A stretch of 64,000 nt of DNA from Escherichia phage LF82-4. The notes beneath the pieces are model-generated. The model did no database searches. It was not told the origin of the DNA and was given only the letters and a program-made list of their open reading frames with translations. Of this stretch, positions 3,887 through 55,028 are shown one piece after another. How positions within the stretch are numbered: the stretch's first letter is position 1; the number at the start of each line of letters is the position of its first letter. Both the position numbers and the translations under genes were made by a program. The stretch lies in the sequence record PV660448; one strand, written 5' to 3'.

Positions 3887-3942
3887 TTTTTTGCATCTCG
3901 CGTTAATTGATGCGATGGTTTTTGCAGGTCTTACTTAAATTA

Positions 3943-4344
3943 TTATAGATTTGGTTTATATGATTTAAATGTTTCGAATTCGCCTTTATTCATAAGAGCT
4001 TTGAATTCGTCAGGACGCATAGCTTTGTCGTCGATAATCCAATCATATACTGGTTTATGTGTTAGCAAATTATGGTACTTCAAACCAATGTTTTCCAAGT
4101 TCTGAATCAGACTTGGGAGAATGTCAATTGCTATACGACCAGGACCTACCGACTTCATACCACGGGCAGTGTAAAGCGTTATGGTATGCCCTGCATCATA
4201 CAGAGCATTAATGGCAGACACCATTTCGACGTCTGGTTTGAAGTTCACGTAATCACGATTGTTATTCCACTCTGTTATACAATCATCGACATCAAAACAA
4301 AGATTAAGCATGTTTTCTACACGGTGCATTAGATTCGTTCCCAT
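3943..4344 (-). CDS. HAD-superfamily small phosphatase (KdsC-like)
   Basis: 133 aa; HAD motif I FDVDDCIT, motif II ITLYTARG, motif IV IIDD; alternative ATG at 4329 overlaps upstream stop (TAATG). Confidence 0.6.
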   Translation of the reverse strand: MGTNLMHRVENMLNLCFDVDDCITEWNNNRDYVNFKPDVEMVSAINALYDAGHTITLYTARGMKSVGPGRIAIDILPSLIQNLENIGLKYHNLLTHKPVYDWIIDDKAMRPDEFKALMNKGEFETFKSYKPNL

Positions 4345-16224: not shown

Positions 16225-17038
16225 ATTGCACCTTAAATTTACCATAAATTATACTGTGATAACTTAAATCAGGAAAACCTTCTGCGACGGCTAAAGGTCT
16301 AAACTTCTTAGGACTTATTCTACCACATTTTACCCAAAGAGCATATAGTGCTTCATAATATTCAAATAATGGTCCTTTACGAGCTTCAGAAACAGCTTTA
16401 CGCACTTTGTCCTTTATTGACGGGTCTAAATTTCTAAGGGTTTCACTAATTTTGTTTCGATGGGTTTCATTAATAAGATTTCCTTTAAGCCAGCCTTCGG
16501 GTTCAGTCCCTGGGACAAACATTTTCTTTTCTTTGCCATTATTATACCATTTGCGGCCTTTATTGTGACTAGAGGCTTTATATTCAGGAGAACGACCTTT
16601 TACATTACCTTCAGGTATATAAGGTAGAAAACTTTGTTCTAACGTTTCAGGGTTGTATGAGTGTATATGGCCTTTACCATTATGTGAGCCGTACAATGGG
16701 TGCTCTTCTTTTGGAAGTGATAATCCGAAAAATCCTTTAGGAGCAGCAATTGCTTTATTCATATACATCGGGTTATTGGCAGCATCCACCTTTAGTTGGA
16801 GTAAACGTTCAGCTTTTGTCGCTTCTTCTCTCGTGGCGTGTTCACTTACAATACATGAATCAAAAAGGTGTGGATTCATTTTTAGTTCAGAATTGTAAAT
16901 TTCCTTATATGCTTTTGATAAAACCGTTCCGTGATATCCAGCTTTATGCTTTGCAATACTTGTAGAACCTATATAAAACGGTGGAAGTTTGTCACCATCA
17001 TAAATCGTAAAATATACTATGTACATGTTATTCTCCAT
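16211..17038 (-). CDS. GIY-YIG homing endonuclease (Seg-like), free-standing
   Basis: 275 aa; GIY-YIG variant YIVYF...FYIGST, conserved R/E/N, NUMOD3-like HNKGRKWYNNG repeat; 3' end overlaps gene 47 start by 14 nt; locus where T4 has alpha-gt. Confidence 0.8.
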   Translation of the reverse strand: MENNMYIVYFTIYDGDKLPPFYIGSTSIAKHKAGYHGTVLSKAYKEIYNSELKMNPHLFDSCIVSEHATREEATKAERLLQLKVDAANNPMYMNKAIAAPKGFFGLSLPKEEHPLYGSHNGKGHIHSYNPETLEQSFLPYIPEGNVKGRSPEYKASSHNKGRKWYNNGKEKKMFVPGTEPEGWLKGNLINETHRNKISETLRNLDPSIKDKVRKAVSEARKGPLFEYYEALYALWVKCGRISPKKFRPLAVAEGFPDLSYHSIIYGKFKVQYENS

Positions 17039-17053
17039 TTTGTATAGAAATTA

Positions 17054-17082
17054 CTATATCATAGTTTATACTGTTTGTAAAC
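17054..17082 (-). promoter_or_regulatory. early-type promoter (GTTTAC -35, TATAGT-like -10) just upstream of the homing endonuclease gene
   Basis: minus strand GTTTAC...GATATAGT, ending 8-15 nt before ATG at 17038; no obvious RBS in the resulting leader. Confidence 0.35.
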
Positions 17083-17096
17083 CCTAGAAACGGAAA

Positions 17097-17116
17097 AGGA
17101 ACTCCGAAGAGTTCCT
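17097..17116 (-). terminator. hairpin with UUCG loop followed by U-rich tract
   Basis: minus strand AGGAACUC-UUCG-GAGUUCCU then UUUCC. Confidence 0.4.
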
Positions 17117-34659: not shown

Positions 34660-34698
34660 GGTAGGACTACTATAACATAGTCCTACCAAGATGTAAAC
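34660..34698 (-). promoter_or_regulatory. promoter-early stem-loop, family taggactactataacatagtcct
   Basis: GTTTAC -35; 9-bp inverted repeat GTAGGACTA/TAGTCCTAC around TATAGT-like -10. Confidence 0.5.
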
Positions 34699-41392: not shown

Positions 41393-41452
41393 TTAGTTTC
41401 TCTTTTAGGTTGGGCCATTCCGTGGCGCATGAATTGTCCATTTCTGTATTTA

Positions 41453-41503
41453 CCCCTCTAAGTAATTATGAATATACTATCACAATTCTAGGAGAAAGTA
41501 AAC
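41453..41503 (-). promoter_or_regulatory. promoter-early stem-loop with SD-like 3' arm
   Basis: minus strand GTTTAC TTTCTCCTAGAATTGTG ATAGTA ...CTTAGAGGGG. Confidence 0.4.
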
Positions 41504-41505
41504 TG

Positions 41506-41808
41506 TTATTTACCTTTAATTACTTTAGCTGCTTCGATAGCCGCTTGCTGAAGGTCATCCATAGACATACCGAATTTAGAAGCAAAGTTATCAATTTTCT
41601 TTTCGACAGCATTCAAAGGCTTGGCCTGTTTACCTTCATTAGCGCCAGGAAGAGCGAGAATACGCTCTTTGTCAATATAAAGGCTTACAAGTTTCTTACG
41701 GTCTTTATCGGACAAATCATGAAATGAATGGGCCTTTTTATTTATAGCGGCTTCTAATTTACCTGCACTCACTCGCGCTTCAGTAATAAATTCTTGATAT
41801 GTTTTCAT
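41506..41808 (-). CDS. internal head protein (capsid-targeting sequence)
   Basis: N-terminus MKTYQEFITEARV... = T4 IP capsid-targeting signal. Confidence 0.75.
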   Translation of the reverse strand: MKTYQEFITEARVSAGKLEAAINKKAHSFHDLSDKDRKKLVSLYIDKERILALPGANEGKQAKPLNAVEKKIDNFASKFGMSMDDLQQAAIEAAKVIKGK

Positions 41809-41839
41809 TTTTTGTTTCCTTGTTTGTTTTGATAGAGTA

Positions 41840-41869
41840 ATTATACCATATTAATACTTAAGCGTAAAC
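41840..41869 (-). promoter_or_regulatory. early promoter (GTTTAC -35, TATAAT -10)
   Basis: minus strand GTTTACGCTTAAGTATTAATATGGTATAAT; upstream of IP gene 41506-41808. Confidence 0.5.
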
Positions 41870-41872
41870 AAT

Positions 41873-42133
41873 TTAAGCTTTACCGCCAGAAATAATTCCG
41901 AAGTTGTTAAAATCGTATCCAATATCGTCAACATCTACTTTAGGATTTACTACAACATAAGCAATTTCACTACGTTTTGCATAGGTGTTGATTTCTTTAC
42001 CATCGCCACCTAAGAAAGAATACCCATTACGTTTTAATGAGCCAAAGTCTTCGGCATCACCAATGAAAGCTTTAACTTTAAATTTAGGACCTTTGGCATC
42101 TGCTTCAATGATAAATTCTTGATACATTTTCAT
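41873..42133 (-). CDS. internal head protein (capsid-targeting sequence)
   Basis: N-terminus MKMYQEFIIEADAKG. Confidence 0.7.
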   Translation of the reverse strand: MKMYQEFIIEADAKGPKFKVKAFIGDAEDFGSLKRNGYSFLGGDGKEINTYAKRSEIAYVVVNPKVDVDDIGYDFNNFGIISGGKA

Positions 42134-42139
42134 TTTTCC

Positions 42140-42553
42140 TTAGTAAATTGATTTACCATAGTATTTGTACCAAGTAGGACGTTGAGCAATTTTTTCATCT
42201 AAGCGTGCTTGACTTATCGCAACGGACGCTTCGGACGGGACATAATTATTACGAAATTCGGCAGGGATGTCGGAAATATCCTGGACTGTCGTGTCCTTGA
42301 TTTTGAAACCACGTTTCAAGCATTCAGCGATTAGCTCGATTTGTCGTAAACGTAAAAATTCAAGTTTGTCGTAAAAGAATGTTACGTGACCTGTGCCTAA
42401 GATAAATGTTGGAGAGATTTTAAAATCCTTTACACGTTTACCGTTTTGGACATGTTTACGGACTGCACTAAATACGCGTGGTAATTCACGATACTCAGCC
42501 ATAAGATGTTGATCGGTCAGTTCAGAAACAAGTGTTAAATTGATACGAGTCAT
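42140..42553 (-). CDS. denV: endonuclease V (pyrimidine dimer DNA glycosylase)
   Basis: 137 aa from ATG 42553 ([28 protein letters not shown]...); matches T4 DenV as recalled. Confidence 0.93.
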
Positions 42554-42556
42554 AAT

Positions 42557-42610
42557 TTCCTCCAAGTAGTTGATGAATGTATAGTATCAAAACCCTTGGA
42601 GGAAGTAAAC
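42557..42610 (-). promoter_or_regulatory. promoter-early stem-loop with SD in 3' arm (10-bp inverted repeat TTCCTCCAAG/CTTGGAGGAA) upstream of denV
   Basis: minus strand GTTTAC TTCCTCCAAGGGTTTTG ATACTATA ...CTTGGAGGAAATT ATG. Confidence 0.55.
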
Positions 42611-42611
42611 A

Positions 42612-42893
42612 CTATTTTTCTGAAGCGCCTGAAATATATTTTTCAAGACGTTGTTTCATCAGCGAGCCGTTCTTAGCGATTTCTTCCGGTTTATCGCACA
42701 TACGTAACAAGGCTTCAAGCTTAGCGATATCGCTGGTACGTTCAAATTTGCGAGTATCTATCTTACTAGCAAGTTCAGAAATACGTGCTAATAGACTTTC
42801 GGCTTCAACCAAAGCTGCACCTAGCTTAGTTGCAAATGTGTCAGTAGCTTCGTTAAGAATAGATTCTGATAAAAATTCACTATATGTTTTCAT
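42612..42893 (-). CDS. internal head protein (capsid-targeting sequence)
   Basis: ATG at 42893 gives [13 protein letters not shown]...; overlaps e stop (ATGA). Confidence 0.7.
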
Positions 42894-43378
42894 ATATACG
42901 CTTTCCAAGTTCCTGTTTTAAATGTTGAGATTACGCGTTTCGCGCGATTAGGTGTCTGACGATACCATTTAGATTGGGCGAGATTTACTGCCGCTTCATC
43001 CCAACGTTTCTGTTGAAGCATACGAAGAGAATTAGTAAAACCAGCAACGCCTGCTACACCCATTTGGAAGACCATATTGACCAATGCACATCGACGAACC
43101 GCGTCTAAAGAATCATATACCGGTTTAAGTTTAGCATTACCCAAGATTCCGCGAACGGCTTTATCGACGTCTTCGTTAAATAGCTTTTCAGCCTCATCAA
43201 GGGTAATTGTACCGTTGCATTTACGACCGATCATTCTGTCAAGTTCAGCTTTAGCTACGGCTAAAGACGGGTTCTTTGTTACTAAATGGCCTATGCCAAT
43301 CGTCCAAAAGCCTTCAGTGTCTTTGTATAAAGTCAGTCTAAGACCTTCGTCATTACGAAGCATTTCAAATATATTCAT
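42890..43378 (-). CDS. e: lysozyme (endolysin)
   Basis: 162 aa from ATG 43378 ([32 protein letters not shown]...); matches T4 lysozyme as recalled; track start is GTG inside upstream hairpin. Confidence 0.95.
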
Positions 43379-43380
43379 AA

Positions 43381-43404
43381 TACCTCCCACGTTTATAGGA
43401 GGTA
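43381..43404 (-). promoter_or_regulatory. stem-loop sequestering the lysozyme Shine-Dalgarno (7-bp stem UACCUCC/GGAGGUA, loop UAUAAACGUG)
   Basis: read directly; SD GGAGG is the 3' arm, 4 nt before ATG; loop carries TATAAA late-promoter-like element. Confidence 0.6.
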
Positions 43405-43412
43405 TTTATTAC

Positions 43413-43871
43413 TTATAGGATGGTAGTGAGCACCTTGTATAACGATTTGCCCATTACATATTCCCATTGAGAAGGTTTAATTAAAGCGAATGCATCAAAT
43501 TCAGGAATCTGTCGTCCGTCTGGGAATGTATGATAGGAATTACAAACACTGTTTCTGAATTGCTCATGCTCTACAGGGATGGTATATAGGAACAGATGAA
43601 TATTCTTATTGTCTGAGTAATGATGTTCACCTAGGTCTTTCAGGAAGGCAGGGTCATATTGTGTAAACCCAGTTTCTTCTTCGCATTCACGAATAGCGGC
43701 TTCAATAGGAGATTCGCCAGGTTCGACACGGCCTTTAGGAATATCCCACCGATGAGCTAATGCACCTTTAGGACGAGAACCAGTTACACGACCCATGAAT
43801 AATTCTTTATTTTCGGTAAGGAAAATAATACCGGCAGATAGTTCTTTCACTTTATTTTTCTTACTCATCAT
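43413..43871 (-). CDS. nudE: Nudix hydrolase
   Basis: Nudix box GRVEPGESPIEAAIRECEEETGF. Confidence 0.85.
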   Translation of the reverse strand: MMSKKNKVKELSAGIIFLTENKELFMGRVTGSRPKGALAHRWDIPKGRVEPGESPIEAAIRECEEETGFTQYDPAFLKDLGEHHYSDNKNIHLFLYTIPVEHEQFRNSVCNSYHTFPDGRQIPEFDAFALIKPSQWEYVMGKSLYKVLTTIL

Positions 43872-44097
43872 CTCGGTCCCATGATTTGGCCATTAATTCA
43901 GACATAAATTCTTCAATGCGCGTTTCTTTAGATGGACTTTCACTATTAGAGACCGCAAGTTTGTAATCTGCAATAGGACGGAACAAATCAAGGTCCATAT
44001 TAAGATCGTCTTTGATTTGTTCTTCAGATACGTCTTTATCATACGTATACAAATAACTATCACCCGATTCTGATTTAACGTAAATTGCTATGCTCAT
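43861..44097 (-). CDS. hypothetical acidic protein (78 aa)
   Basis: track ORF. Confidence 0.5.
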   Translation of the reverse strand: MSIAIYVKSESGDSYLYTYDKDVSEEQIKDDLNMDLDLFRPIADYKLAVSNSESPSKETRIEEFMSELMAKSWDRDDE

Positions 44098-44492
44098 CTC
44101 AAATTCCTACATTCGGTAATAAAACGTTCAACTTCATTATTCTTGGCCTTTATCTTGTCTTTACGTTCCTGTAAACTACTTTTAACAAGATTAATAATGA
44201 TGCCTATAGTACCTCCACCAATAATACCACCAATAATACTTACGATAGTAGATGCTAATAATATAGCGATAATATCTGGTATGGCAAAGGCACTTACTTT
44301 AGTACTAAAAAACCATACCGACGGTACAAATATAATCCATCCTGTTATCCATTGGCACTTATTGAAAAACTTTTCAAGCTCAGCTTGAGTTGTTCTTATT
44401 ACTTCATCGATAGGTTGATATCCATTAATGTATCTGTTCACGATAATACCTGCTGGCTGGTCGATTTTAAATTCTTGACAAATACGTTTCAC
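44094..44492 (-). CDS. membrane protein (132 aa)
   Basis: two TM helices incl. glycine-zipper IIGGIIGGGTIGIII. Confidence 0.55.
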   Translation of the reverse strand: MKRICQEFKIDQPAGIIVNRYINGYQPIDEVIRTTQAELEKFFNKCQWITGWIIFVPSVWFFSTKVSAFAIPDIIAILLASTIVSIIGGIIGGGTIGIIINLVKSSLQERKDKIKAKNNEVERFITECRNLR

Positions 44493-44573
44493 TAAGTAGG
44501 ATGGACATCCTGTCCAATCTACTGAATAGTACGAAATACCTTCATTACTTAGACCAATATGTTTTGTTAATCA

Positions 44574-45260
44574 TTACCAGCCTTCCATAGGGAATTCCAG
44601 ATAAACTTGAGCATTGACACGAATTTCATTGGTAATCTTTTTAACTCGGTCTGTATTACGAGATACACGTCCGAACCAACGCCATCCATTACTAATTGCA
44701 CGAGAACCAGTGTGCCATGTTTGCCAATCAAACTGAAGAAGAGTACGGTCCGGAGCTTCCCATTTCTCTAGTTCACCTTTTTCAATTTTTTCGAGGACTT
44801 CTTTGTGCCATTGGCGATAGATAAGTTCGCCATCAGGAATCTGACTGAACTCTGCAGTTCCTGTTGCAAAATGAGTAGGACACACGTCAGCGTTAACAAG
44901 ACCAAGAATATGTTCAGAATGGTAACGAGGGTTATCATAGTCAGGTTGTCCTGCAGTAATAAAGTGTTGGCCGACTGGAATATCAGGGCGAGGAACATCG
45001 TCATGGTGATATCCAGGAATAGCAGGATACCAACCAGGCATCAGCATATGAACCCGAGAATCAAATACAACATGTTGATTAGTCCAATCAATTGGGAGAT
45101 TGGCAATAAAGCTACGAGTAATAGGACCGCCGTTATCCCAAGCAAAACTCAAATCACAGTTAAAGAACATTGGTTCATTTTTGATTTGGTCATTTTGTAC
45201 GTTATGAGCAAAACCACCTACTGCGCGAGCTTGACTATTAAACACTTTAGAACTATTCAT
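44574..45260 (-). CDS. hypothetical protein (228 aa)
   Basis: ATG start; His/Asp-rich segment YHHDDVPRP (possible metal site), no firm family. Confidence 0.55.
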   Translation of the reverse strand: MNSSKVFNSQARAVGGFAHNVQNDQIKNEPMFFNCDLSFAWDNGGPITRSFIANLPIDWTNQHVVFDSRVHMLMPGWYPAIPGYHHDDVPRPDIPVGQHFITAGQPDYDNPRYHSEHILGLVNADVCPTHFATGTAEFSQIPDGELIYRQWHKEVLEKIEKGELEKWEAPDRTLLQFDWQTWHTGSRAISNGWRWFGRVSRNTDRVKKITNEIRVNAQVYLEFPMEGW

Positions 45261-45261
45261 A

Positions 45262-45567
45262 TTATTTTCCTCGACATTCTTTAATGAAATTTTCTAGATT
45301 GGTAGATTCAATAGCTTTTTTACGAGCTTCTGCATGTTCTTCTTCAGACAATTTACATTTATAATTAACCCAGACGTTATGGTCAAAACTAGTCGTGGCA
45401 TATAATAACAATGCTCCAACGAATAGCAAAAACGGCGATAAGAATACAAAACCAGGAACACCATCCATATCGTAAGCCTTTTGTAATACTGCAACAGAAA
45501 GGGCTGCGTAAAAAGGTGATGCAAATATTGTTAAAAGACCAATTCGGTTGGTTTCGCCTAATTTCAT
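45262..45567 (-). CDS. membrane protein (101 aa)
   Basis: two hydrophobic helices; GAGGAGAAT RBS. Confidence 0.55.
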   Translation of the reverse strand: MKLGETNRIGLLTIFASPFYAALSVAVLQKAYDMDGVPGFVFLSPFLLFVGALLLYATTSFDHNVWVNYKCKLSEEEHAEARKKAIESTNLENFIKECRGK

Positions 45568-45588
45568 AATATTCTCCTCATGTTTTTA

Positions 45589-45626
45589 ATAGGACTACTA
45601 TAACATAGTCCTATAATTGTGTAAAC
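45589..45626 (-). promoter_or_regulatory. promoter-early stem-loop, family taggactactataacatagtcct
   Basis: GTTTAC -35; inverted repeat ATAGGACT/AGTCCTAT. Confidence 0.5.
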
Positions 45627-45638
45627 AGTTTTGTGAAG

Positions 45639-46595
45639 TTATTTGAAAGGTTTTACCATATGGAAATTTTGTTTGAAACGTTTGACGTAATCATTTTTGC
45701 CGAGCTTATGATACATAGCCACTACTTCATAATAGTTCTCGTATGCGTACTCACGGAACCATCCGGAGGTGATGCTTGTACAGACTTTTTCCAATGCCAT
45801 CATAAAACTGGCTTCAGGGTTAATTTTAAAGTTATTAGGAATCTGAGAACGTTCTAATGCTAATACACATGATTCTTCGTATACACCGGCCAATTTGACC
45901 ATTTCTGGTAATGATTCGAACTTCTCGCGTGAGGTCATGACTTCAGAACCATCTTTCATATAAAATGTATACGCTGGACGGTCTGTTAGTGCAATGGCTT
46001 CATGAATAGTATCATGGTCATATGTATAGATGTCATCTTTAAAGAACGCACTTTTAGAAGTGTCAAGAACCGGGTGAGCATAGTTCAAAGTTTCTTTCTG
46101 GCGTTTCAACATAATTTCAGTAAGTTCATCGTTCAGTGTAACACCTTTACCACGAAGATACTGAATATGGTTCATAGTCTTTAAAAAGAATGGATTATTT
46201 TTCTTGAAACGATGAGACATCTTAATTGCAAGACATATCTCAGGAGTTGCCCAGTAAAACCCAGTCAAACGGTCTTTAGTCAAATTTTTCTTGGCGTATT
46301 TTAAAAGGTCATAAGAAGATGTGAAATCTTCAGGAGTGAGTTCACCGACTAATTCACGGACATTAGTGATTGCCGGAACAATATATGCTTCAAAATGAGT
46401 TTCACGTCCATTATGGAAGCATTTGAAAACTTGGACATCAGGGTTATCTTGGTGAACATATACACCCATCATTTGATTTTTGAATACATTCCAAGAACCT
46501 TGGTCCGCAATAAAGTCCCAATCACTATTTTTGATAGCGCTAGAATCAATAAGGCCATGGTAGTGAAGTGCACGAGAACCAATAACTAACATCAT
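45639..46595 (-). CDS. hypothetical protein (318 aa)
   Basis: track ORF; N-terminal GSRALHYHG...SDWDF weakly nucleotidyltransferase-like. Confidence 0.55.
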   Translation of the reverse strand: MMLVIGSRALHYHGLIDSSAIKNSDWDFIADQGSWNVFKNQMMGVYVHQDNPDVQVFKCFHNGRETHFEAYIVPAITNVRELVGELTPEDFTSSYDLLKYAKKNLTKDRLTGFYWATPEICLAIKMSHRFKKNNPFFLKTMNHIQYLRGKGVTLNDELTEIMLKRQKETLNYAHPVLDTSKSAFFKDDIYTYDHDTIHEAIALTDRPAYTFYMKDGSEVMTSREKFESLPEMVKLAGVYEESCVLALERSQIPNNFKINPEASFMMALEKVCTSITSGWFREYAYENYYEVVAMYHKLGKNDYVKRFKQNFHMVKPFK

Positions 46596-46620
46596 AATAT
46601 TTTCCTCGAATTTAGATTAC

Positions 46621-46872
46621 TTAAATTTCGCGACATGCGATATTATATTCATCCCAGAGGTCGTCATGTGAAGCCTCTACCAATGGAACGATTGTACCAT
46701 TTATATCTTCATTATAAGGGCAAATTGTACAGTGCGCATCTTCGAATCGGATGCCTTTGTGTTCAGATTTTTTATAACGCATATCGAATATCTTTGCAAA
46801 CTTTTCACGAGTAATAGTTTTAGCAACTACTTCGGTTCCTATACTTTCGTAATAAACCATTGTTGTCTCCAT
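46621..46872 (-). CDS. hypothetical protein (83 aa)
   Basis: track ORF. Confidence 0.5.
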   Translation of the reverse strand: METTMVYYESIGTEVVAKTITREKFAKIFDMRYKKSEHKGIRFEDAHCTICPYNEDINGTIVPLVEASHDDLWDEYNIACREI

Positions 46873-46880
46873 TTAATTTG

Positions 46881-46918
46881 ATAGGACTACTATAACATAG
46901 CCCTATCTTGTTGTAAAC
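46881..46918 (-). promoter_or_regulatory. promoter-early stem-loop, family taggactactataacatagtcct (one arm mismatch)
   Basis: GTTTAC -35; gataggactactataacatagccctatc. Confidence 0.45.
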
Positions 46919-46922
46919 TGTT

Positions 46923-47120
46923 TTAGCAAGAATAACTAGATGATACCCAGCCTTGAACAGTGATACTATTGTGGGATAATGAGATCGCGTCCTGGAGATT
47001 CAGACCTGCATTATCTTCAATCCACAATGTAACTTCTTCACGCTCTTCGGTTGCAATCTGGAACAGGTTTTCTAGAGCAGCTACGGCCGTACGTACAGCA
47101 CAATCTAATTCACGAGACAT
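46923..47120 (-). CDS. small protein with conserved C-terminal W-V-S-S-S-x-x-C motif (paralogue 1)
   Basis: ends ...QGWVSSSYSC. Confidence 0.5.
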   Translation of the reverse strand: MSRELDCAVRTAVAALENLFQIATEEREEVTLWIEDNAGLNLQDAISLSHNSITVQGWVSSSYSC

Positions 47121-47129
47121 ATGATTTCC

Positions 47130-47402
47130 TTAACAAGTGTGAGAAGATGCAACCCAACCACCAGTTTCGAGGCTCAGGTTGTAGTCGTATTGGTAAACGT
47201 CAGCCCATTCGGCATAACCGTTTTTTGTACAACGTTCAAGATCGGCTTTAAGATGTCCGGGTGAATGATAGGTTCCACCCATACCATAAGCTGGGTACAA
47301 GTTGAATGTTGTGTTTTGTTTATCAGCAATTTCTTTGGCAGCCTCAATAGCTGCATAGATTTTTGCTACAGCTTCAGCCAGTTCGGTTTGTTCTTTAGAC
47401 AT
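47130..47402 (-). CDS. small protein with conserved C-terminal W-V-[AS]-S-S-x-x-C motif (paralogue 2)
   Basis: ends ...GGWVASSHTC. Confidence 0.55.
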   Translation of the reverse strand: MSKEQTELAEAVAKIYAAIEAAKEIADKQNTTFNLYPAYGMGGTYHSPGHLKADLERCTKNGYAEWADVYQYDYNLSLETGGWVASSHTC

Positions 47403-47411
47403 AATGATTCC

Positions 47412-47717
47412 TTAGCACAACGCAGAAGATGAAACCCAAGCACCTTCAGTAATAACGTATCCATTACCTTCACGCTTAACATCGCCGCCATTATTTTCAA
47501 TTTCATCTTTCATCCACTGGGATACGATTTCACCCTTAGGATAATAAGTACGACCGCTACCATAATCACCTACAGAAAATGATACGGCATATTGGTCTGC
47601 GATCTTTGTTGCTTCTTCTTCGATACGTTCAGCTTGATTCAGAAGTTTATAAATTGCATCTGAAGCGGATTTGGCATCATTAAACTCTGGTACTTTAATT
47701 TCAATAATCTTACTCAT
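47412..47717 (-). CDS. small protein with conserved C-terminal W-V-S-S-S-x-x-C motif (paralogue 3)
   Basis: ends ...GAWVSSSALC. Confidence 0.55.
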   Translation of the reverse strand: MSKIIEIKVPEFNDAKSASDAIYKLLNQAERIEEEATKIADQYAVSFSVGDYGSGRTYYPKGEIVSQWMKDEIENNGGDVKREGNGYVITEGAWVSSSALC

Positions 47718-47776
47718 TTTCTACATTCCTTAATAAAGTTTTCGATTGTTTCATTTTCACGTTTAGCTAGGAGTTC

Positions 47777-47806
47777 ATTATAACTAATCATTTGAGAAGC
47801 GTAAAC
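47777..47806 (-). promoter_or_regulatory. early promoter (GTTTAC -35, TATAAT -10)
   Basis: minus strand GTTTACGCTTCTCAAATGATTAGTTATAAT. Confidence 0.5.
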
Positions 47807-47815
47807 AGCATAAAT

Positions 47816-48208
47816 TCAGTTAAGGCTTTTGCATCTTATTTCCTTAACGAATTCCATAGCTTCTTCATATTCATACTTTTTAACAGCTTCATCATACTGA
47901 GCTTGGGCTTTTGCGCACTGAACTTTCCATTCTCTTAATCGGGCTCTGTGATGACGGCCTTGGTACCAATATCCCATCCAGTTAATAGGCATTAATAAAA
48001 ATGGTACAATAAGTGGTGCGACGAACATTAATGAAAATGCTGCATCAGACGATATAACTTCACTAGAATCTAAAACGGCTCCTATAATCATAAAGATTAA
48101 AAATGCTAAAGCTAAAATAGGGCCAAATAGTACTTCATTTGGGATTAATTTACGCTTGTATTCATACGCCCAGGGCTTACTTGGCATGTACAGGGTTGGC
48201 TTTGACAT
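47816..48208 (-). CDS. membrane protein (130 aa)
   Basis: ATG at 48208; two TM helices; track start is TTG. Confidence 0.5.
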   Translation of the reverse strand: MSKPTLYMPSKPWAYEYKRKLIPNEVLFGPILALAFLIFMIIGAVLDSSEVISSDAAFSLMFVAPLIVPFLLMPINWMGYWYQGRHHRARLREWKVQCAKAQAQYDEAVKKYEYEEAMEFVKEIRCKSLN

Positions 48209-48779
48209 ATTCTCTACATTCCATAATAAATTGCTCAAGGATTAAATTGTTAGTGAAATTAGGACTAACAACCATAGTTTCATAAAGCGCATCAATAGCA
48301 CTTAAAGCATCAACTCTCTTAAGCAAAGGCTTGCCTTCATACATAGTTTCAGAATCGACGATTAACGTAAAGTAGTATTTTTTATTATCGACTAGAACTT
48401 CTGTATCGATATAAAACATATTAGACCTCAGAAGCTTATCTCTAAAACCATAATAATCTTCAGAGCGTTCGCTGATATATTCCCATTCAGTGTTTAAACA
48501 ACAAACAGACCACGTAGGAGCAACGAAATCAGTGAATCTAATATCATAGTCTGCAACTAGTTTAGCAATAGCTCCGATATCATGAATCATAATACCTGGG
48601 GCTAATAAAGATTTTCTGCTATGGCTAGCCGTTTTCTCAGTGGTTTCATAAGAAGACGACCAATACCATTTACGTCCGGTTGCAACATATCGTAATGAAT
48701 CAACTAAAGACGTAGGTGGATTTACCTTATCTCGGAACTCTTCGAACATTGAGTCAATATCATTATTTTGGTTTCGCAT
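48177..48779 (-). CDS. hypothetical protein (200 aa)
   Basis: ATG at 48779 with AAGGAG RBS; track start is TTG. Confidence 0.55.
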   Translation of the reverse strand: MRNQNNDIDSMFEEFRDKVNPPTSLVDSLRYVATGRKWYWSSSYETTEKTASHSRKSLLAPGIMIHDIGAIAKLVADYDIRFTDFVAPTWSVCCLNTEWEYISERSEDYYGFRDKLLRSNMFYIDTEVLVDNKKYYFTLIVDSETMYEGKPLLKRVDALSAIDALYETMVVSPNFTNNLILEQFIMECREYVKANPVHAK

Positions 48780-48802
48780 GTTAACTCCTTTATTATCCAA
48801 AA

Positions 48803-48820
48803 GGAGGACCGGAGTCCTCC
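48803..48820 (-). terminator. hairpin (7-bp GC-rich stem) followed by UUUUGG
   Basis: minus strand GGAGGAC-UCCG-GUCCUCC UUUUGG, after stop at 48829. Confidence 0.5.
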
Positions 48821-48828
48821 GTATTATT

Positions 48829-49422
48829 TTATTTCAAAGAGTTAATATATTCTTGTACATCAGCAGAAGTGGTTTCGACACCGGCTGGAGTGCCATTGAA
48901 CGTTTCAACACGAGTCAGAGTGTCTTCGATATCAACCTTAGTCAGTGCAGCGATTTCAATCACATCATCAGCCGTAGAGATACCAAGGGCATTGGCTGCT
49001 CGAGTTTCACGAATGTATTCGAGTTTGATTGCCAGGTTCTGACGAGCATCATCAAGTTCAACCACCTTACGAGCAATTTCAATTCGCATAGCGGCATACC
49101 CATCAGCTTTTGTATTAAGTTGTTCGGCAGTTCGACGATACAGAAGACCAAGCTTAGCATGCATGGTAACATCTTGTCCTTCAGCCAGGAGCTTACGAAT
49201 TTCACGTTCCTTAGAAGCGGCTTGCTTGTTCTTTTCATTAACAAGTTCGCGAATACGTTTTTCTTCATTAATAGATTTAACAGAAGCCGTTTTTAGTTCT
49301 TTGATTTGGGTAATCAACTTATCTGCAGCTGCGTTATACTGTTCTTCGACAGTCAGATTTTTAGCCATAGCAGTACCCAGTTTAGTGCGGATGAATTCAA
49401 CAAGTTTCTTCAGTGTGTTCAT
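48829..49422 (-). CDS. hypothetical coiled-coil protein (197 aa)
   Basis: ATG at 49422; track start is TTG. Confidence 0.55.
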
Positions 49423-49444
49423 ATTATTACCTTTCAATTGGTGG

Positions 49445-49489
49445 TTTATTATCCAACGAGAGCATTATACTCTGCTCTCAAGAGTTTGT
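49445..49489 (-). repeat. 45-bp promoter cassette, copy B (identical to 19504-19548)
   Basis: minus strand TTTACA -35 ... TATAAT -10 embedded in GAGAGCA/TGCTCTC stem-loop. Confidence 0.8.
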
Positions 49490-49492
49490 AAA

Positions 49493-49720
49493 TTATTTTT
49501 TAATCAAATTGACATAAAACTTGGCATCTTCGGGGTGCATGCCTTCGCAGTATTCTTCAACCATGAACTTCTTAACAGCTTCATAAGGACCACTCAGATT
49601 AAGCTCAGTTGTCCAGAACTTGGAATCTTGTACTGAATCGATACGAACTTCAGGGTGACGGTTGCGAATAACTTCTTCTGTGTATTCATAATCAACGACA
49701 TCAATACTAACTTTAGCCAT
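49493..49720 (-). CDS. hypothetical protein (75 aa)
   Basis: track ORF; GAGGAAAA RBS. Confidence 0.55.
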   Translation of the reverse strand: MAKVSIDVVDYEYTEEVIRNRHPEVRIDSVQDSKFWTTELNLSGPYEAVKKFMVEEYCEGMHPEDAKFYVNLIKK

Positions 49721-49766
49721 TTTGTTTTCCTCTTGATTTGATGTGATTACTATAACATAAACTTAC

Positions 49767-49931
49767 TTAGATGTAAACTATTTCAACATCACCTTTAGCT
49801 GCTTTATAACCTTCGGCCCAAGATACAACAGAGTTTTTATCTGAGGATTCAAATTCAGGCATTGGACTTTCACCAATATTCACACAGTATGTTTCTTCAT
49901 TTTCATCGAACCAAATAATTAAAGTAGTCAT
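49767..49931 (-). CDS. small acidic protein (54 aa), not in ORF track
   Basis: ATG at 49931 with GGAG RBS; fills 280-nt gap. Confidence 0.35.
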   Translation of the reverse strand: MTTLIIWFDENEETYCVNIGESPMPEFESSDKNSVVSWAEGYKAAKGDVEIVYI

Positions 49932-49950
49932 TTTGTTTACTCCACTGTAG

Positions 49951-49990
49951 TTGATAAGTCTATAGTATCACCATCCTTGGTGCTTGTACA
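49951..49990 (-). promoter_or_regulatory. promoter-early stem-loop, family ttgataagtctatagtatca
   Basis: TGTACA -35, CCAAGGATGG spacer motif, TACTAT -10. Confidence 0.45.
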
Positions 49991-49999
49991 TCATTATTT

Positions 50000-50305
50000 T
50001 TAATTTTTCCAACTTAACAACTTGTAGTGTCCTTCATTCGTACGAGGTTTATCCCAATAGATATTAATAAACGATGTCTCACCAATAGAAGTCGGCGGTT
50101 TTTTCTCTACAGTAAGACCTTCGCTTTCTAACCACTCAATGACTTTTGTAGATAAAGCTAAAGAAACATGTAATGGACAACGACAGTATTTTTCACCTTT
50201 AGCTGAAGACTCGTACATCATTTCTAAAATACGTTTTTGCACTTTTTTAAAAATAGTTTCAGCAGATTCTTCAGATTTTTTATTCAGTTCAGTGTAAAGA
50301 CTCAT
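50000..50305 (-). CDS. hypothetical protein (101 aa)
   Basis: track ORF with ATG. Confidence 0.55.
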   Translation of the reverse strand: MSLYTELNKKSEESAETIFKKVQKRILEMMYESSAKGEKYCRCPLHVSLALSTKVIEWLESEGLTVEKKPPTSIGETSFINIYWDKPRTNEGHYKLLSWKN

Positions 50306-50322
50306 AATATTCTCCTCTGCGG

Positions 50323-50362
50323 TTGATAAGTCTATAGTATCATGTCCTTAGAAGAAGTAAAC
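50323..50362 (-). promoter_or_regulatory. promoter-early stem-loop, family ttgataagtctatagtatca
   Basis: GTTTAC -35; 20-bp core identical to 49951-49970. Confidence 0.45.
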
Positions 50363-50392
50363 AACTTTTTAAACTTTTTCTGCCCTAGATAC

Positions 50393-50421
50393 CAAAAAGC
50401 CCCAACCTTTCGGAAGGGGCT
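50393..50421 (-). terminator. intrinsic terminator, copy 3 of 3 identical hairpins
   Basis: same 24-bp hairpin AGCCCCUUCCGAAAGGUUGGGGCU plus U-tract. Confidence 0.55.
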
Positions 50422-50462
50422 AAGCCTTGCGGCAACCTTGTCGGGGTTTCCACCTACTAGGT

Positions 50463-50554
50463 AAGTGTTTGTACGAAACGCCGGGATTCGAACCCGGTTA
50501 TTAAGCAGTTGACGCTACTCAATATTTTTAAAAGGCCATATCTCGACCATATCC
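50463..50554 (-). ncRNA. tRNA-like structured RNA candidate (acceptor stem plus canonical T-arm, non-canonical interior)
   Basis: minus strand 7-bp acceptor pairing CGGAACG/CGUUUCG and T-arm CCGGG-UUCGAAU-CCCGG; no canonical D/anticodon arms found by hand; lies in 330-nt ORF-free gap. Confidence 0.3.
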
Positions 50555-50732
50555 GAACGTTCCGTCAAAAACGCTACTCGGCTTACGGCAAAGATATTTC
50601 CTCGAATCGATAATTCTGTGCGCCGTTTCTGCTGTGATGTAAGGGGATATTAACGAATCATAAAGATTTATTAAGACCAGTCCTTACTCAGGGAACATCA
50701 GTCCGACGACTTACCGGTAGCGACCCGGCTTC

Positions 50733-51077
50733 TTATTTTGGCATATCATCAATTTGCTCTCGACGCCGACGCCATAGATTAATCGCTTCATAAACACATT
50801 CAGCATTTGGTATATGGCGACAATAGTATAGTGATTCGCGTTTCTGGAACCGATGTTGCAATGGGATTTCGTTTAAAAGGTCTTTACGGTCAAAGTATTC
50901 AAAACTAGTTAACCCGGAACGGTTTTTAAGAAACTTCCAATGGCCAAATTCATTTTGGAAATAAACGTAATCAGCGTGTTGATATAATGAATTAATCAAC
51001 CGGTCGGAAATAACTGTATCCTGTTCGTTAAAATAAAACGTTAAATCATGAACTACCAGATAAATATTGCCTTTCAT
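50733..51077 (-). CDS. hypothetical protein (114 aa)
   Basis: ATG start; 8 nt after HEG stop. Confidence 0.55.
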   Translation of the reverse strand: MKGNIYLVVHDLTFYFNEQDTVISDRLINSLYQHADYVYFQNEFGHWKFLKNRSGLTSFEYFDRKDLLNEIPLQHRFQKRESLYYCRHIPNAECVYEAINLWRRRREQIDDMPK

Positions 51078-51084
51078 ATTTTCC

Positions 51085-51753
51085 TCACTTAAATTTTAGT
51101 TTATAGCCTTTAATCCAACCTTCCGGAATAGGATCGGTTTTCTTAATTTTCTTAGATTTCTTTTCTTCTAATGAATGAATCCACATAGTACCAAACTGGG
51201 AATTTTTCTCGCCTTGTTGGTGTTTGTTCCTGGCGTGGGTATCTTTCATTTTAGCAATAGTTTCGGAAGTATGATTTTTATTTAAAAACGACTTAGTGCT
51301 AGAGAATTTTTCTCTGTATTCAGGTAAAGTCCACAGATGCTTTAATTTCTCTGAACCCATTTTACGATATTTTTCTTGAAGCACTTCATCAGAATCAAAT
51401 CTCTCTTTAAAAGCTTTGGCTCCTTTAATAGAGGCTTCTTTCTTTTTATAATTAAATTCGTAAGTATTTAAATGGTCCCAACCACCTTCGCCACCAAGTT
51501 TTAAATTATATACGTCAGAACGATTCAAAAATTCTTCGTTTACGATATTTTTCTCGGCTTCAAACATCTGCTCTTTAGTGTCAAAGAATTCTAAAATTTC
51601 TTTATTAAAATTTTCTATACCATACTTGTCTTGGGCTCTTTTTAATAATTTACCAGAACCCATATATCCATCATCTAAATTTTCGGTAGAATGAGCGCCT
51701 ATATAGATTTTATTATTAATTTTATTTGTTATTTTATAAGTGTAATGGAACAT
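51085..51753 (-). CDS. GIY-YIG homing endonuclease (SegB-like) in tRNA region
   Basis: 222 aa; GIY-YIG YTYKITNKINNKIYIGAH, NUMOD3-like repeats KNHTSETIAKMK and GEKNSQFGTMW. Confidence 0.8.
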   Translation of the reverse strand: MFHYTYKITNKINNKIYIGAHSTENLDDGYMGSGKLLKRAQDKYGIENFNKEILEFFDTKEQMFEAEKNIVNEEFLNRSDVYNLKLGGEGGWDHLNTYEFNYKKKEASIKGAKAFKERFDSDEVLQEKYRKMGSEKLKHLWTLPEYREKFSSTKSFLNKNHTSETIAKMKDTHARNKHQQGEKNSQFGTMWIHSLEEKKSKKIKKTDPIPEGWIKGYKLKFK

Positions 51754-51794
51754 AAATATCTCCTATTTCTAAGAGTATTTATGTTCCCAAAATA

Positions 51795-51866
51795 TGGCCC
51801 TGGCTGGTTTCGATCCAGCTACCTATCAGTTATGAGCTGACAGCTCTCCCATTGAGCTACAGGGCC
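51795..51866 (-). tRNA. tRNA with anticodon CAU (Met or Ile2-type)
   Basis: 72 nt cloverleaf folded by hand: acceptor GGCCCUG/CAGGGCC, D-arm GCUC/GAGC, anticodon stem GUCAG/CUGAU with loop CUCAUAA, T-arm GCUGG/CCAGC; no encoded CCA. Confidence 0.8.
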
Positions 51867-51960
51867 TTAATAACTTTCTATTATGAAAGGCACTTTAGAG
51901 CACCTTTGGTAATAGAGGGTAGATTAATAATAACACATAATTCTTAAAGCAAATTACGTT

Positions 51961-52251
51961 TTACCATACCATATTAATGTAATTATACTCAATACATTCA
52001 AGATTTAAAGGATTCTTGAAAATATCATATTCAAGAGGACCTTTTTCTGTTTCAATAAAGAAATCAAAGTTCACACTATTAAATTTGCGGTCTTCCCAAA
52101 GTAATTTAACCTGTGAAGATGAACGGTCGACGTAAACCTTTTCAACTTCAAAGTGGGTCAAAATACCATAGTAATCGACTAGTGCTTTAGCTGCACGTTG
52201 ATCGCTTTCATATCCATTCTCAACGGATTTTACCTTAGCATAAAGAATCAT
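51961..52251 (-). CDS. hypothetical protein (96 aa)
   Basis: track ORF. Confidence 0.55.
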   Translation of the reverse strand: MILYAKVKSVENGYESDQRAAKALVDYYGILTHFEVEKVYVDRSSSQVKLLWEDRKFNSVNFDFFIETEKGPLEYDIFKNPLNLECIEYNYINMVW

Positions 52252-52610
52252 GAATGTTCCACCACTTCAAAGGTGTGAGCATCAACAATATGATACCAGT
52301 CAAAATTTTCTTCTGCGTTTTTATAAATTTCGCGAAGAGCCTCAACAGTTTTTCCTGTAGCAACAAGGTCGTCAATACCACCAAGAGGATAACAGTCATA
52401 ACCAGCAAACAGAAGGAAATTAATAGTTTCTGTAGGTTCTGGATGCAAAACACCATTATCATCTACCACTTCAAAGAAAGTGTAAGAAGGAGTACAAGTT
52501 TTAATCCAAGCCCATGCTTGAGCTGCTGAATCAAATGGTCTGCGTATCAAACGACAATCAGGGTCTTTAGAAGGATTTGCTTCAAAATCCGCATATACGT
52601 GATATTTCAT
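52248..52610 (-). CDS. hypothetical protein (120 aa)
   Basis: ATG at 52610 with AAGGTGAG RBS; track start is TTG. Confidence 0.55.
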   Translation of the reverse strand: MKYHVYADFEANPSKDPDCRLIRRPFDSAAQAWAWIKTCTPSYTFFEVVDDNGVLHPEPTETINFLLFAGYDCYPLGGIDDLVATGKTVEALREIYKNAEENFDWYHIVDAHTFEVVEHS

Positions 52611-52611
52611 T

Positions 52612-52797
52612 TTACTCACCTTTTGCAATTTTATCCATAACGATAGCGATTAAGCCGATTAGAAATGCTACTACCAATGAGATAGAATTTTCTGTTGTTG
52701 TCAGTAGTCCACAAATGAATCCTACAAACATCGAAAAACTAAAAGCCATTGAAGCAATTACTACAGCAACATTACGAATCAGTTCAGCGCGTTTCAT
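52612..52797 (-). CDS. small membrane protein (61 aa)
   Basis: two hydrophobic helices. Confidence 0.5.
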   Translation of the reverse strand: MKRAELIRNVAVVIASMAFSFSMFVGFICGLLTTTENSISLVVAFLIGLIAIVMDKIAKGE

Positions 52798-52816
52798 TTT
52801 ATTCTCCTCAGTAGTT

Positions 52817-52855
52817 GATAGGGTAATAGTATCACTACCCTATCTAAAAGTAAAC
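52817..52855 (-). promoter_or_regulatory. promoter-early stem-loop (9-bp inverted repeat GATAGGGTA/TACCCTATC)
   Basis: GTTTAC -35 at 52850-52855. Confidence 0.5.
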
Positions 52856-52866
52856 GGTTTTATAAA

Positions 52867-53175
52867 CTATTTTATTCCGCGTGATGCAATCGTATTCTGC
52901 CGTTTAACACCAGTTTGTTTAAAGTCATGACTGTCGATTTGATCGGTGCGAGCAACTCCGAATGATGATTTAATCTTAGCTTTAGATCCTTTAGTTATAG
53001 AAATAAACATCTCGGAAGACCCTTTCTTAAAGTCTGATGCAGATACTTCAACACCGTTCTTAGCAAGTGACCTCAGAATTGCATCCGCGTACTCATCATC
53101 AAGACTCGCTTGAGTATTAATAACAAATGTCTTTGGTGCAGCCGCTTCATTGATAAATTCTTTATAGGTTTTCAT
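52867..53175 (-). CDS. internal head protein (capsid-targeting sequence)
   Basis: N-terminus MKTYKEFINEAAAP. Confidence 0.7.
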   Translation of the reverse strand: MKTYKEFINEAAAPKTFVINTQASLDDEYADAILRSLAKNGVEVSASDFKKGSSEMFISITKGSKAKIKSSFGVARTDQIDSHDFKQTGVKRQNTIASRGIK

Positions 53176-53197
53176 TTTATTTTCCTAATTAATTTTG

Positions 53198-53235
53198 ATA
53201 GGACTACTATAACATAGTCCTATTAGCATGTAAAC
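53198..53235 (-). promoter_or_regulatory. promoter-early stem-loop, family taggactactataacatagtcct
   Basis: GTTTAC -35; inverted repeat ATAGGACT/AGTCCTAT. Confidence 0.5.
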
Positions 53236-53238
53236 TAC

Positions 53239-53526
53239 TTACAGAAGGGTTTTTGCAATAATTTTAAGCTGAGCTACAGAAATATGCTTAGCTTTAAACA
53301 GTGCAGTCTCTTCAGCCGGAGAGATAACAATAGTAGCGCCATCTTTCTTAGCAGACCATCCATCCCCTAAGTAAACAGTACCTTTTACTTCTTCGCCATC
53401 AACCAGACTAATCATTGGTTTACCCTCACGTCCTTTATTTGCTTTAATAACTTCGGAAGTAAGGGTCGCTTCGGTCAGAGTAGAAACGTTAGCATCAGGT
53501 GATATAAATTCTTTATAGGTTTTCAT
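53239..53526 (-). CDS. internal head protein (capsid-targeting sequence)
   Basis: N-terminus MKTYKEFISPDANV. Confidence 0.7.
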   Translation of the reverse strand: MKTYKEFISPDANVSTLTEATLTSEVIKANKGREGKPMISLVDGEEVKGTVYLGDGWSAKKDGATIVISPAEETALFKAKHISVAQLKIIAKTLL

Positions 53527-53554
53527 TTTATTTCCTTGAGGTTGTTTATTTTAT

Positions 53555-53590
53555 AGGATGATAGTAACACACCATCATCCTTATGTAAAC
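53555..53590 (-). promoter_or_regulatory. promoter-early stem-loop (8-bp inverted repeat AGGATGAT/ATCATCCT)
   Basis: GTTTAC -35 at 53585-53590. Confidence 0.5.
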
Positions 53591-53603
53591 TGTTTTGTGA
53601 AAA

Positions 53604-54293: not shown

Positions 54294-55028
54294 TTACCTT
54301 AAGATTTTTTCAATTTTAGAATAAAGCTCTTCTAACGAGCCGTCGTTTGTAATAACTAAGTCGCCTTCTTCAATAGGCAACCCAGCTTCTGTAATATGTT
54401 TATCAGTGGATTCCGTACCAGAGCGAACCACATGAATAACTGTAGCACCCATCGCTCTAGCGGTTTCCATTTCATGGACTTGTCGTGTATCGGTCACAAC
54501 GTAGTAATCGAAATCACTTCCAATATAATCCATATAGTTTAATGCAAAAAGCTTAACCCAATACATACGGTCAAATAAATTAACGACAACATCCGTACCG
54601 AGGGCTTGCATAAGACGGCGGATCGACCATGTGTCGTTGATATTATTTATAGCTTCACGCAGGGCTTCATATGGTTTAATATCTAGATATGAATATCCAC
54701 CTTCTAACGATGATAATACTTTAACATTATTAATTGGTAAATATTGACTTTGCAAATAAATTAGCGCTTCTTCCAATAATTCAATAACATCCAACTTATT
54801 GAGATTTAATGGTGTTTCACGGTCGTATCCAATGCCTTCAAAGTATTCGTATTTCAACTCTGTGAATACATCAGGATTTTCAGCATGTCTACGTCCCCAG
54901 GCTATTGCTAGAGCGTCTTTAATTGGATATGCTAATTGGTATTTTACGGATTTAAAGTTTGAATTGATGTAATCAGCAGTAGTGTCTTTACCACTACGTT
55001 TGATGCCACTTAAAAAGATTAGCTCCAT
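54294..55028 (-). CDS. 1: deoxynucleoside monophosphate kinase
   Basis: 244 aa; MELIFLSGIKRSGKDTTADYI... matches T4 gp1 as recalled. Confidence 0.93.
   Translation of the reverse strand: MELIFLSGIKRSGKDTTADYINSNFKSVKYQLAYPIKDALAIAWGRRHAENPDVFTELKYEYFEGIGYDRETPLNLNKLDVIELLEEALIYLQSQYLPINNVKVLSSLEGGYSYLDIKPYEALREAINNINDTWSIRRLMQALGTDVVVNLFDRMYWVKLFALNYMDYIGSDFDYYVVTDTRQVHEMETARAMGATVIHVVRSGTESTDKHITEAGLPIEEGDLVITNDGSLEELYSKIEKILR

Follow-up and report, generated by a model that had tools for sequence, protein, structure and literature searches.

What are several short genes, alike in their first few codons and in little else, doing in the genome of a T4-like phage? The question is raised by Escherichia phage LF82-4, of which a stretch of 64,000 nucleotides (sequence record PV660448; here called the window) was analysed, and by five open reading frames (ORFs) between positions 41,506 and 53,526 whose products begin with MK[TM]Y[QKS]EF[IL]. 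An earlier note on this DNA had seen in that signature the capsid-targeting sequence (CTS) of T4, and in the five genes a variable arsenal of injected counter-defence proteins. The five are very probably internal-protein (ip) genes of an RB69-like T4-type phage, the products of which would be injected and be inhibitory as in T4. The motifs, homologies, positions, promoter cassettes and mosaic breakpoints that bear on this are observed directly in the DNA.

Five internal-protein genes at two loci

A six-frame scan of all 64 kb with the pattern MK[TM]Y[QKS]EF[IL] finds exactly five ORFs, as had been claimed, and all lie on the minus strand (Table 1); shuffled sequence yielded none in 200 shuffles, and a looser form of the pattern brought no further ORFs over the 64 kb. 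That the bodies of the proteins differ is confirmed as well, since pairwise blastp of the five aligns only the first ~10-30 residues (best E 3e-4) and so the bodies are without detectable sequence similarity. One start needs correction. A motif gene does stand at 42612, but its listed start was a TTG at 42908, whereas the motif begins with the ATG at 42893, also the start annotated in relatives.

In the propeptide of T4 IPIII, positions 4 and 7 serve capsid targeting and positions 8 and 10 processing, and the prohead protease gp21 cleaves after the Glu of (L/I)-x-E (PMC9026906). Y4 and F7 are present in all five window proteins (position 4 is Y or F in known T-even internal proteins, T4 IpI having F there), and a predicted (L/I)-x-E site ends each propeptide, at residues 8-10 in four proteins and at 17-19 in IpI, which gives propeptides of 10-19 residues and bears out the reading of the signature as T4-type. 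The LTE at 17-19 of IpI coincides with the start (residue 1) of mature IPI* in PDB 2JUB. Predicted mature lengths are 76-92 residues, and the predicted isoelectric points (pI) of the mature forms are basic for IpII, Ip7 and IpI (9.0-9.7) and near neutral for the Ip5-like protein and the RB69ORF125c type, hereafter the 125c type (6.3-6.4).

All five proteins fall into PHROG families annotated as internal head or virion protein, and two of them have close T4 relatives. IpI scores 169.6 bits (E 1.4e-50) over residues 20-95 against Pfam PF11634 (IPI_T4), the gathering cut-off of which is 25 bits, and the same residues align end to end with 2JUB (T4 IPI*), 76/76 residues with four substitutions (I→V, A→V, H→Q, N→T); the same count has been reported for RB69 IPI against T4 (PMC6024577). 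Its amino acid identity is 88% to T4 IpI and 99% to RB69 IpI, from which one residue in 95 differs. IpII is a full-length orthologue of T4 IpII (93% amino acid identity over 100 residues, 96% at the DNA level; phrog_7857, E 4.5e-55) and is not found in RB69, where ORF124c and ORF123c occupy its place.

The other three have their nearest relatives elsewhere among the T-even phages. Ip7 is a full-length orthologue of RB15 Ip7 (Z35082; 94% identity over 102 residues) and is 92% identical to that of T2 (phrog_2667, E 4e-42). The Ip5-like protein matches RB15 Ip5 and PST IpV at 48% identity over 84 of 93 residues (E 3e-23; phrog_3499, E 2e-46), and by this alignment it is a divergent subfamily of Ip5, placed at a different locus; it is 100% identical to a coding sequence (CDS) of Shigella phage Shf125875, and RefSeq labels its RB69 counterpart 'internal head protein'. 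The same label is given in RefSeq to RB69p125, to which the 125c type is 97% identical (phrog_2667, E 9e-21; phrog_35655, E 3e-26). Ip7 and the 125c type share phrog_2667, yet blastp pairs them only at E 0.012 with the CTS included. No Ip number was found for the 125c type, which occurs in 217 phage records, including Mosigvirus phages, a Gelderlandvirus (Melville) and VR20, and in few T4/T2-type phages in this survey.

Searches for deeper relationships gave little. Neither Pfam nor NCBIfam yielded a family that matches Ip7, the Ip5-like protein or the 125c type, and large protein searches returned 12 and 14 close clusters, too shallow for profiles; the 125c type has just 12 clusters among 5.8 billion proteins. 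Its AlphaFold2 model, made from a 7-sequence alignment, has a mean predicted local distance difference test score (pLDDT) of 42.7 and is unusable. The corresponding model of Ip7 (mean pLDDT 64, core 70-84; β-α-β-β-α) predicts a small alpha/beta core at residues 13-72 and a basic, Lys/Arg-rich C-terminal tail of low confidence, for which Foldseek against the PDB gave no match at E ≤ 1e-3, just generic ferredoxin-like, ACT or RRM folds.

The genes had been described as dispersed. They are found instead in two clusters, all five within the two canonical T4 ip loci (e/denV/vs.8 and 57B/trna.4), which are recognised by synteny with T4, RB69, PST, T2 and RB15 and at which T4 places ipII/ipIII and ipI respectively. 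On the minus strand the order runs gene 1, 57A, 57B, ipI, ip7, trna.4-trna.2, tRNA-Met and a SegB-like endonuclease gene, and then the e.x genes, nudE, e, an ip gene (Ip5-like), denV, an ip gene (125c type), ipII and vs.8. The RB69-like character of the genome is seen from megablast of 41400-53600, which matched about 1,000 T4-like phage records; Shf125875, a Mosigvirus from the RB69 group, ranked first, with 97% identity across 94% of the query.

Promoter cassettes and the shuffling of modules

The pattern GTTTAC-N18-TANNNT, which describes the promoter part of the cassettes, has 17 matches in the 64 kb, all on the minus strand, against 0.83 expected, and 10 of the 17 lie within 41.4-53.6 kb. 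Of the 8 junctions with an ip gene on at least one side, 6 have a cassette, compared with 4 of the region's 22 remaining junctions (Fisher one-sided p = 0.007). The earlier note had each gene beside a promoter cassette, which holds on the downstream side, where the −35 element begins 2-12 nt past the stop codon of every ip gene; upstream a cassette is found only for ipII, ip7 and ipI, the Ip5-like and 125c-type genes lying directly behind e and denV respectively and having no promoter of their own. The 125c-type gene begins 6 nt past the denV stop codon, and the ATG of the Ip5-like gene overlaps the stop of the lysozyme gene e by 4 nt (ATGA).

These sites have the features of the early-promoter/stem-loop cassettes (PeSLs) of T4-like phages, being intergenic and on the transcribed strand with a −35 TTTAC, a 17-nt spacer and a −10 TAnnnT. 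All but one of the six ip-flanking cassettes have a stem-loop (−12 to −19 kcal/mol, z −2.2 to −5.0), which either spans the −10 hexamer or pairs with the ribosome-binding site of the next gene. In the cassettes before denV (42556-42610) and vs.8 (41449-41503), both on the minus strand, the stem forms between the spacer of the promoter and the Shine-Dalgarno sequence of the gene that follows, and so read-through transcripts could have the ribosome-binding site masked. Early transcripts of T4 gene e have theirs masked by such a stem.

T4 carries the same cassettes attached to different genes. The cassette between ip7 and trna.4 is equivalent to that of T4 ipI|trna.4, the one before denV has the architecture of T4 ipII|denV, the one between ipII and vs.8 is closest to T4 e|ipIII (93% identity over 44 nt), and the ip7 leader downstream of the ipI / ip7 cassette matches the T4 57B|ipI leader. 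The T4 records AF158101 and NC_000866 annotate no promoter feature in the stretches compared. Nearly the same stem-loop, (A)TAGG(A/G)CTATGTTATAGTAGTCCTA(T), recurs on the minus strand at 34669-34698, 45597-45626, 46889-46918 and 53206-53235, and such a four-copy element over 19 kb could be a recombination substrate beyond the ip loci. A match to the late promoter TATAAATA at 41739-41746 was rejected as a promoter, being coding sequence within ipII.

That the ip genes found in a given slot vary among related phages, a comparison the earlier note had called for, is well illustrated between 57B and trna.4. T4 has ipI there, T2 has ip5 and ip7, PST has ipV and ipVI, RB15 has ip5, ip9, ip7 and ip8, RB69 has an Ip7-like gene (p156) and ipI, and the window has ipI and ip7. 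The conserved genes that flank the loci (denV, e, nudE, trna.4, 57B, 57A, gene 1 and vs.8) are 68-86% identical in DNA to T4 or T2. With 96% DNA identity between ipII and T4, and with ip7 much closer to RB15/T2 (93%) than to RB69 p156 (69%), the ipII and ip7 modules appear foreign to the genome in which they now reside.

The borders of the modules can be placed quite closely. Around ipII the sequence is T4-like from 41473 to 41821 and RB69-like sequence resumes at 41779, and so the crossover lies inside the CTS codons, within the overlap 41779-41821; at the opposite end the RB69-like sequence reaches 41431, a little past the cassette, which puts that breakpoint at 41431-41473. The ip7 module (52808-53192) is bounded by cassettes and sits here between ipI and trna.4, a position at which RB69 has no counterpart. 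Upstream of ipI the window tracks the RB69 57B|p156 intergenic region as far as the CTS codons and then RB69 ipI, the switch lying within a 30-nt repeat of Shine-Dalgarno and CTS-coding sequence shared by the ipI and ip7 starts (Table 1). Cassettes are likewise found at the borders of insertions or replacements between the window, RB69 and T4.

An ip module would then consist of the Shine-Dalgarno and CTS-coding sequence, a variable body, and an early-promoter/stem-loop cassette, and homologous recombination in the conserved module ends would swap, insert or delete bodies, so that related phages come to carry different ip sets.

Table 1. Positions of the ip genes, their flanking cassettes and the repeats at their starts (aa, amino acids)
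Feature	Position	Strand	Details
ipI, internal protein I precursor, 95 aa	53239..53526	minus	predicted propeptide 1-19 = MKTYKEFISPDANVSTLTE (LTE at 17-19); mature IPI* 20-95
ip7, internal protein 7, 102 aa	52867..53175	minus	predicted propeptide 1-10 (…INE)
Ip5-like internal protein (RB69ORF127c type), 93 aa	42612..42893	minus	LSE at 8-10, LNE at 13-15
RB69ORF125c-type internal protein, 86 aa	41873..42133	minus	predicted propeptide 1-10 (…IIE); mature pI about 6.4
ipII, internal protein II, 100 aa	41506..41808	minus	predicted propeptide 1-10 (…ITE); basic mature protein, pI 9.7
PeSL, 57B / ipI junction	53561..53590	minus	GTTTACA-N17-TACTAT; stem-loop spans −10; −15.4 kcal/mol, z = −4.4
PeSL, ipI / ip7 junction	53206..53235	minus	GTTTACA-N17-TATAGT; −12.9 kcal/mol, z = −3.5
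PeSL, ip7 / trna.4 junction	52826..52855	minus	GTTTACT-N17-TACTAT; −16.4 kcal/mol, z = −3.8
PeSL, Ip5-like gene / denV junction	42581..42610	minus	GTTTACT-N17-TACTAT; −18.9 kcal/mol, z = −5.0
Early-type promoter without stem-loop, 125c-type gene / ipII	41840..41869	minus	GTTTACG-N17-TATAAT; −2.5 kcal/mol, z = −0.06
PeSL, ipII / vs.8 junction	41474..41503	minus	GTTTACT-N17-TAGTAT; −12.2 kcal/mol, z = −2.2
30-nt Shine-Dalgarno + CTS-coding repeat	53504..53533 (ipI start), 53153-53182 (ip7 start)	minus	100% direct repeat
36-nt Shine-Dalgarno + CTS-coding repeat (family D1)	41777..41812 (ipII start)	minus	copies 42102-42137 (89%), 42862-42897 (72%)

What the injected proteins may do

The idea of an injected arsenal draws on T4, the internal proteins of which do include anti-restriction factors. 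According to Bair, Rifat and Black (2007, as cited in PMC12373910), IPI* blocks the GmrSD enzyme of CT596, IPIII is needed on ECOR17 (PMC9391042), and Ip1, Ip2 and Ip3 each inhibit a different GmrSD type IV subtype without cross-protection (Silas et al. 2025, PMC12373910), that of Ip2 being the ECOR21-type GmrSD/BrxU (PMC12373910); RB69 IPI too is reported to prevent GmrSD restriction (PMC6024577). An anti-restriction role of window IpI and IpII, as close homologues of Ip1 and Ip2, seems well founded on their sequences, and we infer one for Ip7, the Ip5-like protein and the 125c type by analogy. Together the canonical loci, the PHROG families, the flanking cassettes and the homology to Ip1/Ip2 lend support to the variable arsenal that had been proposed.

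Packaging, cleavage, injection and inhibition are carried over here from published T4 work, and on that analogy each protein would carry at its N-terminus a capsid-targeting propeptide of 10 or 19 residues (MKTYxEF…) that tethers it to the prohead scaffolding core. Cleavage by gp21 after the Glu of (L/I)-x-E would free an 8-10 kDa mature protein, which would remain in the head with the DNA, enter the cell alongside it at infection, and inhibit a first-response host nuclease stoichiometrically, ahead of any phage gene expression. IpI should block a CT596-type and IpII an ECOR21/BrxU-type GmrSD, and Ip7, the Ip5-like protein and the 125c type would most likely be inhibitors of other modification-dependent or similar defences. 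Since they enter together with the DNA, internal proteins act earlier than any other phage counter-defence, and knowledge of the ip set of a therapeutic T4-like phage helps to forecast its host range among wild E. coli and Shigella strains.

Several points weigh against this account. Ip4-10 gave no reproducible inhibition when set against 15 GmrSD groups (PMC12373910, Supplementary Fig. 9 legend), and the predicted structures of Ip7 and the 125c type offer no functional clue. Three additional (L/I)-x-E sites within the body of the Ip5-like protein make the extent of its mature form uncertain. The canonical late promoter TATAAATA is absent from the DNA directly upstream of every ip gene, the nearest one upstream of the ipI/ip7 pair being inside gene 1 (54644-54651), a point that bears on how the proteins are supplied during prohead assembly.

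The alternative that survives best, although it still seems rather unlikely, is that some of the five are injected effectors directed not at type IV enzymes but at other first-response defences or at host functions, in the manner of Alt, which modifies RNA polymerase. The want of a target for Ip4-10 among the 15 GmrSD groups (PMC12373910) favours it, as does the occurrence of the 125c type in Mosigvirus phages, a Gelderlandvirus and VR20; RB69, the sole Mosigvirus tested, has arabinosyl-hydroxymethylcytosine (arabinosyl-hmC) and not glucosyl-hmC (PMC6024577), and so the relevant nucleases or defences may differ. Set against this, mature proteins of 76-92 residues that belong to no Pfam or NCBIfam enzyme family resemble binders and not enzymes, and every characterised member targets GmrSD. 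A related and more doubtful suggestion is that the 125c type, and possibly the Ip5-like protein too, is injected to inhibit some defence with which internal proteins have so far not been connected. The target of the 125c type could be a nuclease recognising arabinosyl-hmC or another non-glucosyl modification, or a non-GmrSD system; a link of the 125c type to arabinosyl-hmC phages is not settled by PMC8056088.

Quite improbable, in turn, is that Ip7, the Ip5-like protein and the 125c type are mainly structural, that is basic or neutral fillers that help with DNA charge, packaging or ejection and have no host target. Mature Ip7 with its pI of 9.7 and its Lys/Arg-rich tail would suit such a role, lysines of T4 internal proteins do contact DNA phosphates (PMC3012670), and the lack of reproducible anti-GmrSD activity of Ip4-10 (PMC12373910) would be explained, but the mature Ip5-like and 125c-type proteins are near neutral, a generic filler needs no non-homologous bodies that turn over between close relatives, and the three T4 internal proteins, formerly viewed as structural, proved to be specific inhibitors (PMC12373910). 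That one or more of the ORFs is a relic, a CTS fused to a body by cassette shuffling with a product neither packaged nor functional, is highly improbable, for although recombination inside the CTS codons does occur and RB69 127c has a divergent N-terminus (MKTYMNFYQN), all five ORFs are intact and have conserved counterparts in 217-496 phage records, with identities as low as about 45-50%, which argues for purifying selection, and all five window copies retain Y4, F7 and the (L/I)-x-E site. Injected inhibitors of the T4 kind remain the preferred reading of the five genes.

Neighbouring genes and likeness to known phages

Between the two clusters lie further features worth recording. A 427-nt gap without an ORF (50306-50732, minus strand) overlaps a stretch (50386-50738) that is 91.5% identical to the T4 sequence holding the small stable RNAs rnaC and rnaD (species 1 and 2); an Rfam search of it matched no family, and so these conserved phage RNAs seem to be without a curated model. 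A SegB-like GIY-YIG homing endonuclease gene (51085-51753, minus strand) adjoins tRNA-Met (51795-51866), with 79% DNA identity to T4 segB plus the adjacent tRNA, and lies at the site of a tRNA-Arg in RB69 and Shf125875, the window having tRNA-Met only. Three tandem small ORFs (46923-47120, 47130-47402 and 47412-47717, minus strand) of the RB69ORF136c, 137c and 138-139c types, without a Pfam family, all end in W-V-(S/A)-S-S-x-x-C and seem to be paralogues that share this ending as a conserved tag.

Of the known systems T4 is the obvious standard, its IPI, IPII and IPIII (Black and co-workers; Silas et al. 2025, PMC12373910) having the same CTS, the same (L/I)-x-E motif and the same two loci as the window genes, and IPI and IPII being direct orthologues of window IpI (four residues different in the mature protein) and IpII (93%). 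T4 differs in having IPIII, in place of which the window has Ip7, the Ip5-like protein and the 125c type, in its gene order (e-ipIII-ipII-denV against e-ip-denV-ip-ipII), and in that two of the window ip genes are without a promoter of their own. The polymorphic T-even ip locus, Ip1-Ip10, was reportedly described by Repoila et al. in 1994 (EMBO J 13:4181). In RB15 (GenBank Z35082; ip5/ip9/ip7/ip8) the 57B|trna.4 slot likewise holds a variable string of CTS genes, whereas the window relative of Ip5 is at the other ip locus, between e and denV.

The window cassettes agree with published PeSLs (Arbiol et al. 2010, PMC2839356; Comeau et al. 2014, PMC4122927) in joining an early sigma-70-type promoter (TTTAC… N17 TA…T) to a stem-loop, in being concentrated in hyperplastic regions and in bordering the genes by which closely related phages differ. 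For PST/T4 the consensus reads TTTACW-N17-TAYWAT, and the stems have the form A-G-N-A … T-C-N-T (PMC2839356; PMC4122927). Window stems follow that style (ATAGGACTA … TAGTCCTAT), but only 6 window sites fit the strict consensus because the −10 hexamer is often TATAGT, and one ip-flanking promoter lacks the stem-loop.

Nearest of all is Shf125875 (KM407600), in which at least four of the five window proteins (IpII, the 125c type, the 127c type and Ip7) have 100% identical CDSs and ipI is 98.3% identical in DNA; its annotation names three of the proteins, as IpII, Ip7 and Ip1. RB69 (NC_004928) has six CTS ORFs, at 3450-5204 and 16450-17110 (123c, 124c, 125c, 127c, ipI and p156), of which RefSeq labels 125c and 127c 'internal head protein' and still leaves 123c and 124c hypothetical. 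It differs from the window in that 123c and 124c replace ipII and in that its Ip7-like gene lies upstream of ipI, window ip7 being downstream.

Each element of this picture is already published or annotated, from the motif and the gene families to the hypervariable loci, the promoter cassettes and the set of injected anti-restriction proteins, and an arsenal of shuffled injected counter-defence proteins is stated almost verbatim in PMC3012670 (Rao & Black 2010) and PMC12373910. What the window adds is no new principle but a clean worked example of it, in which a T4-type ipII module and a T2/RB15-type ip7 module have come to stand in an RB69-like genome.

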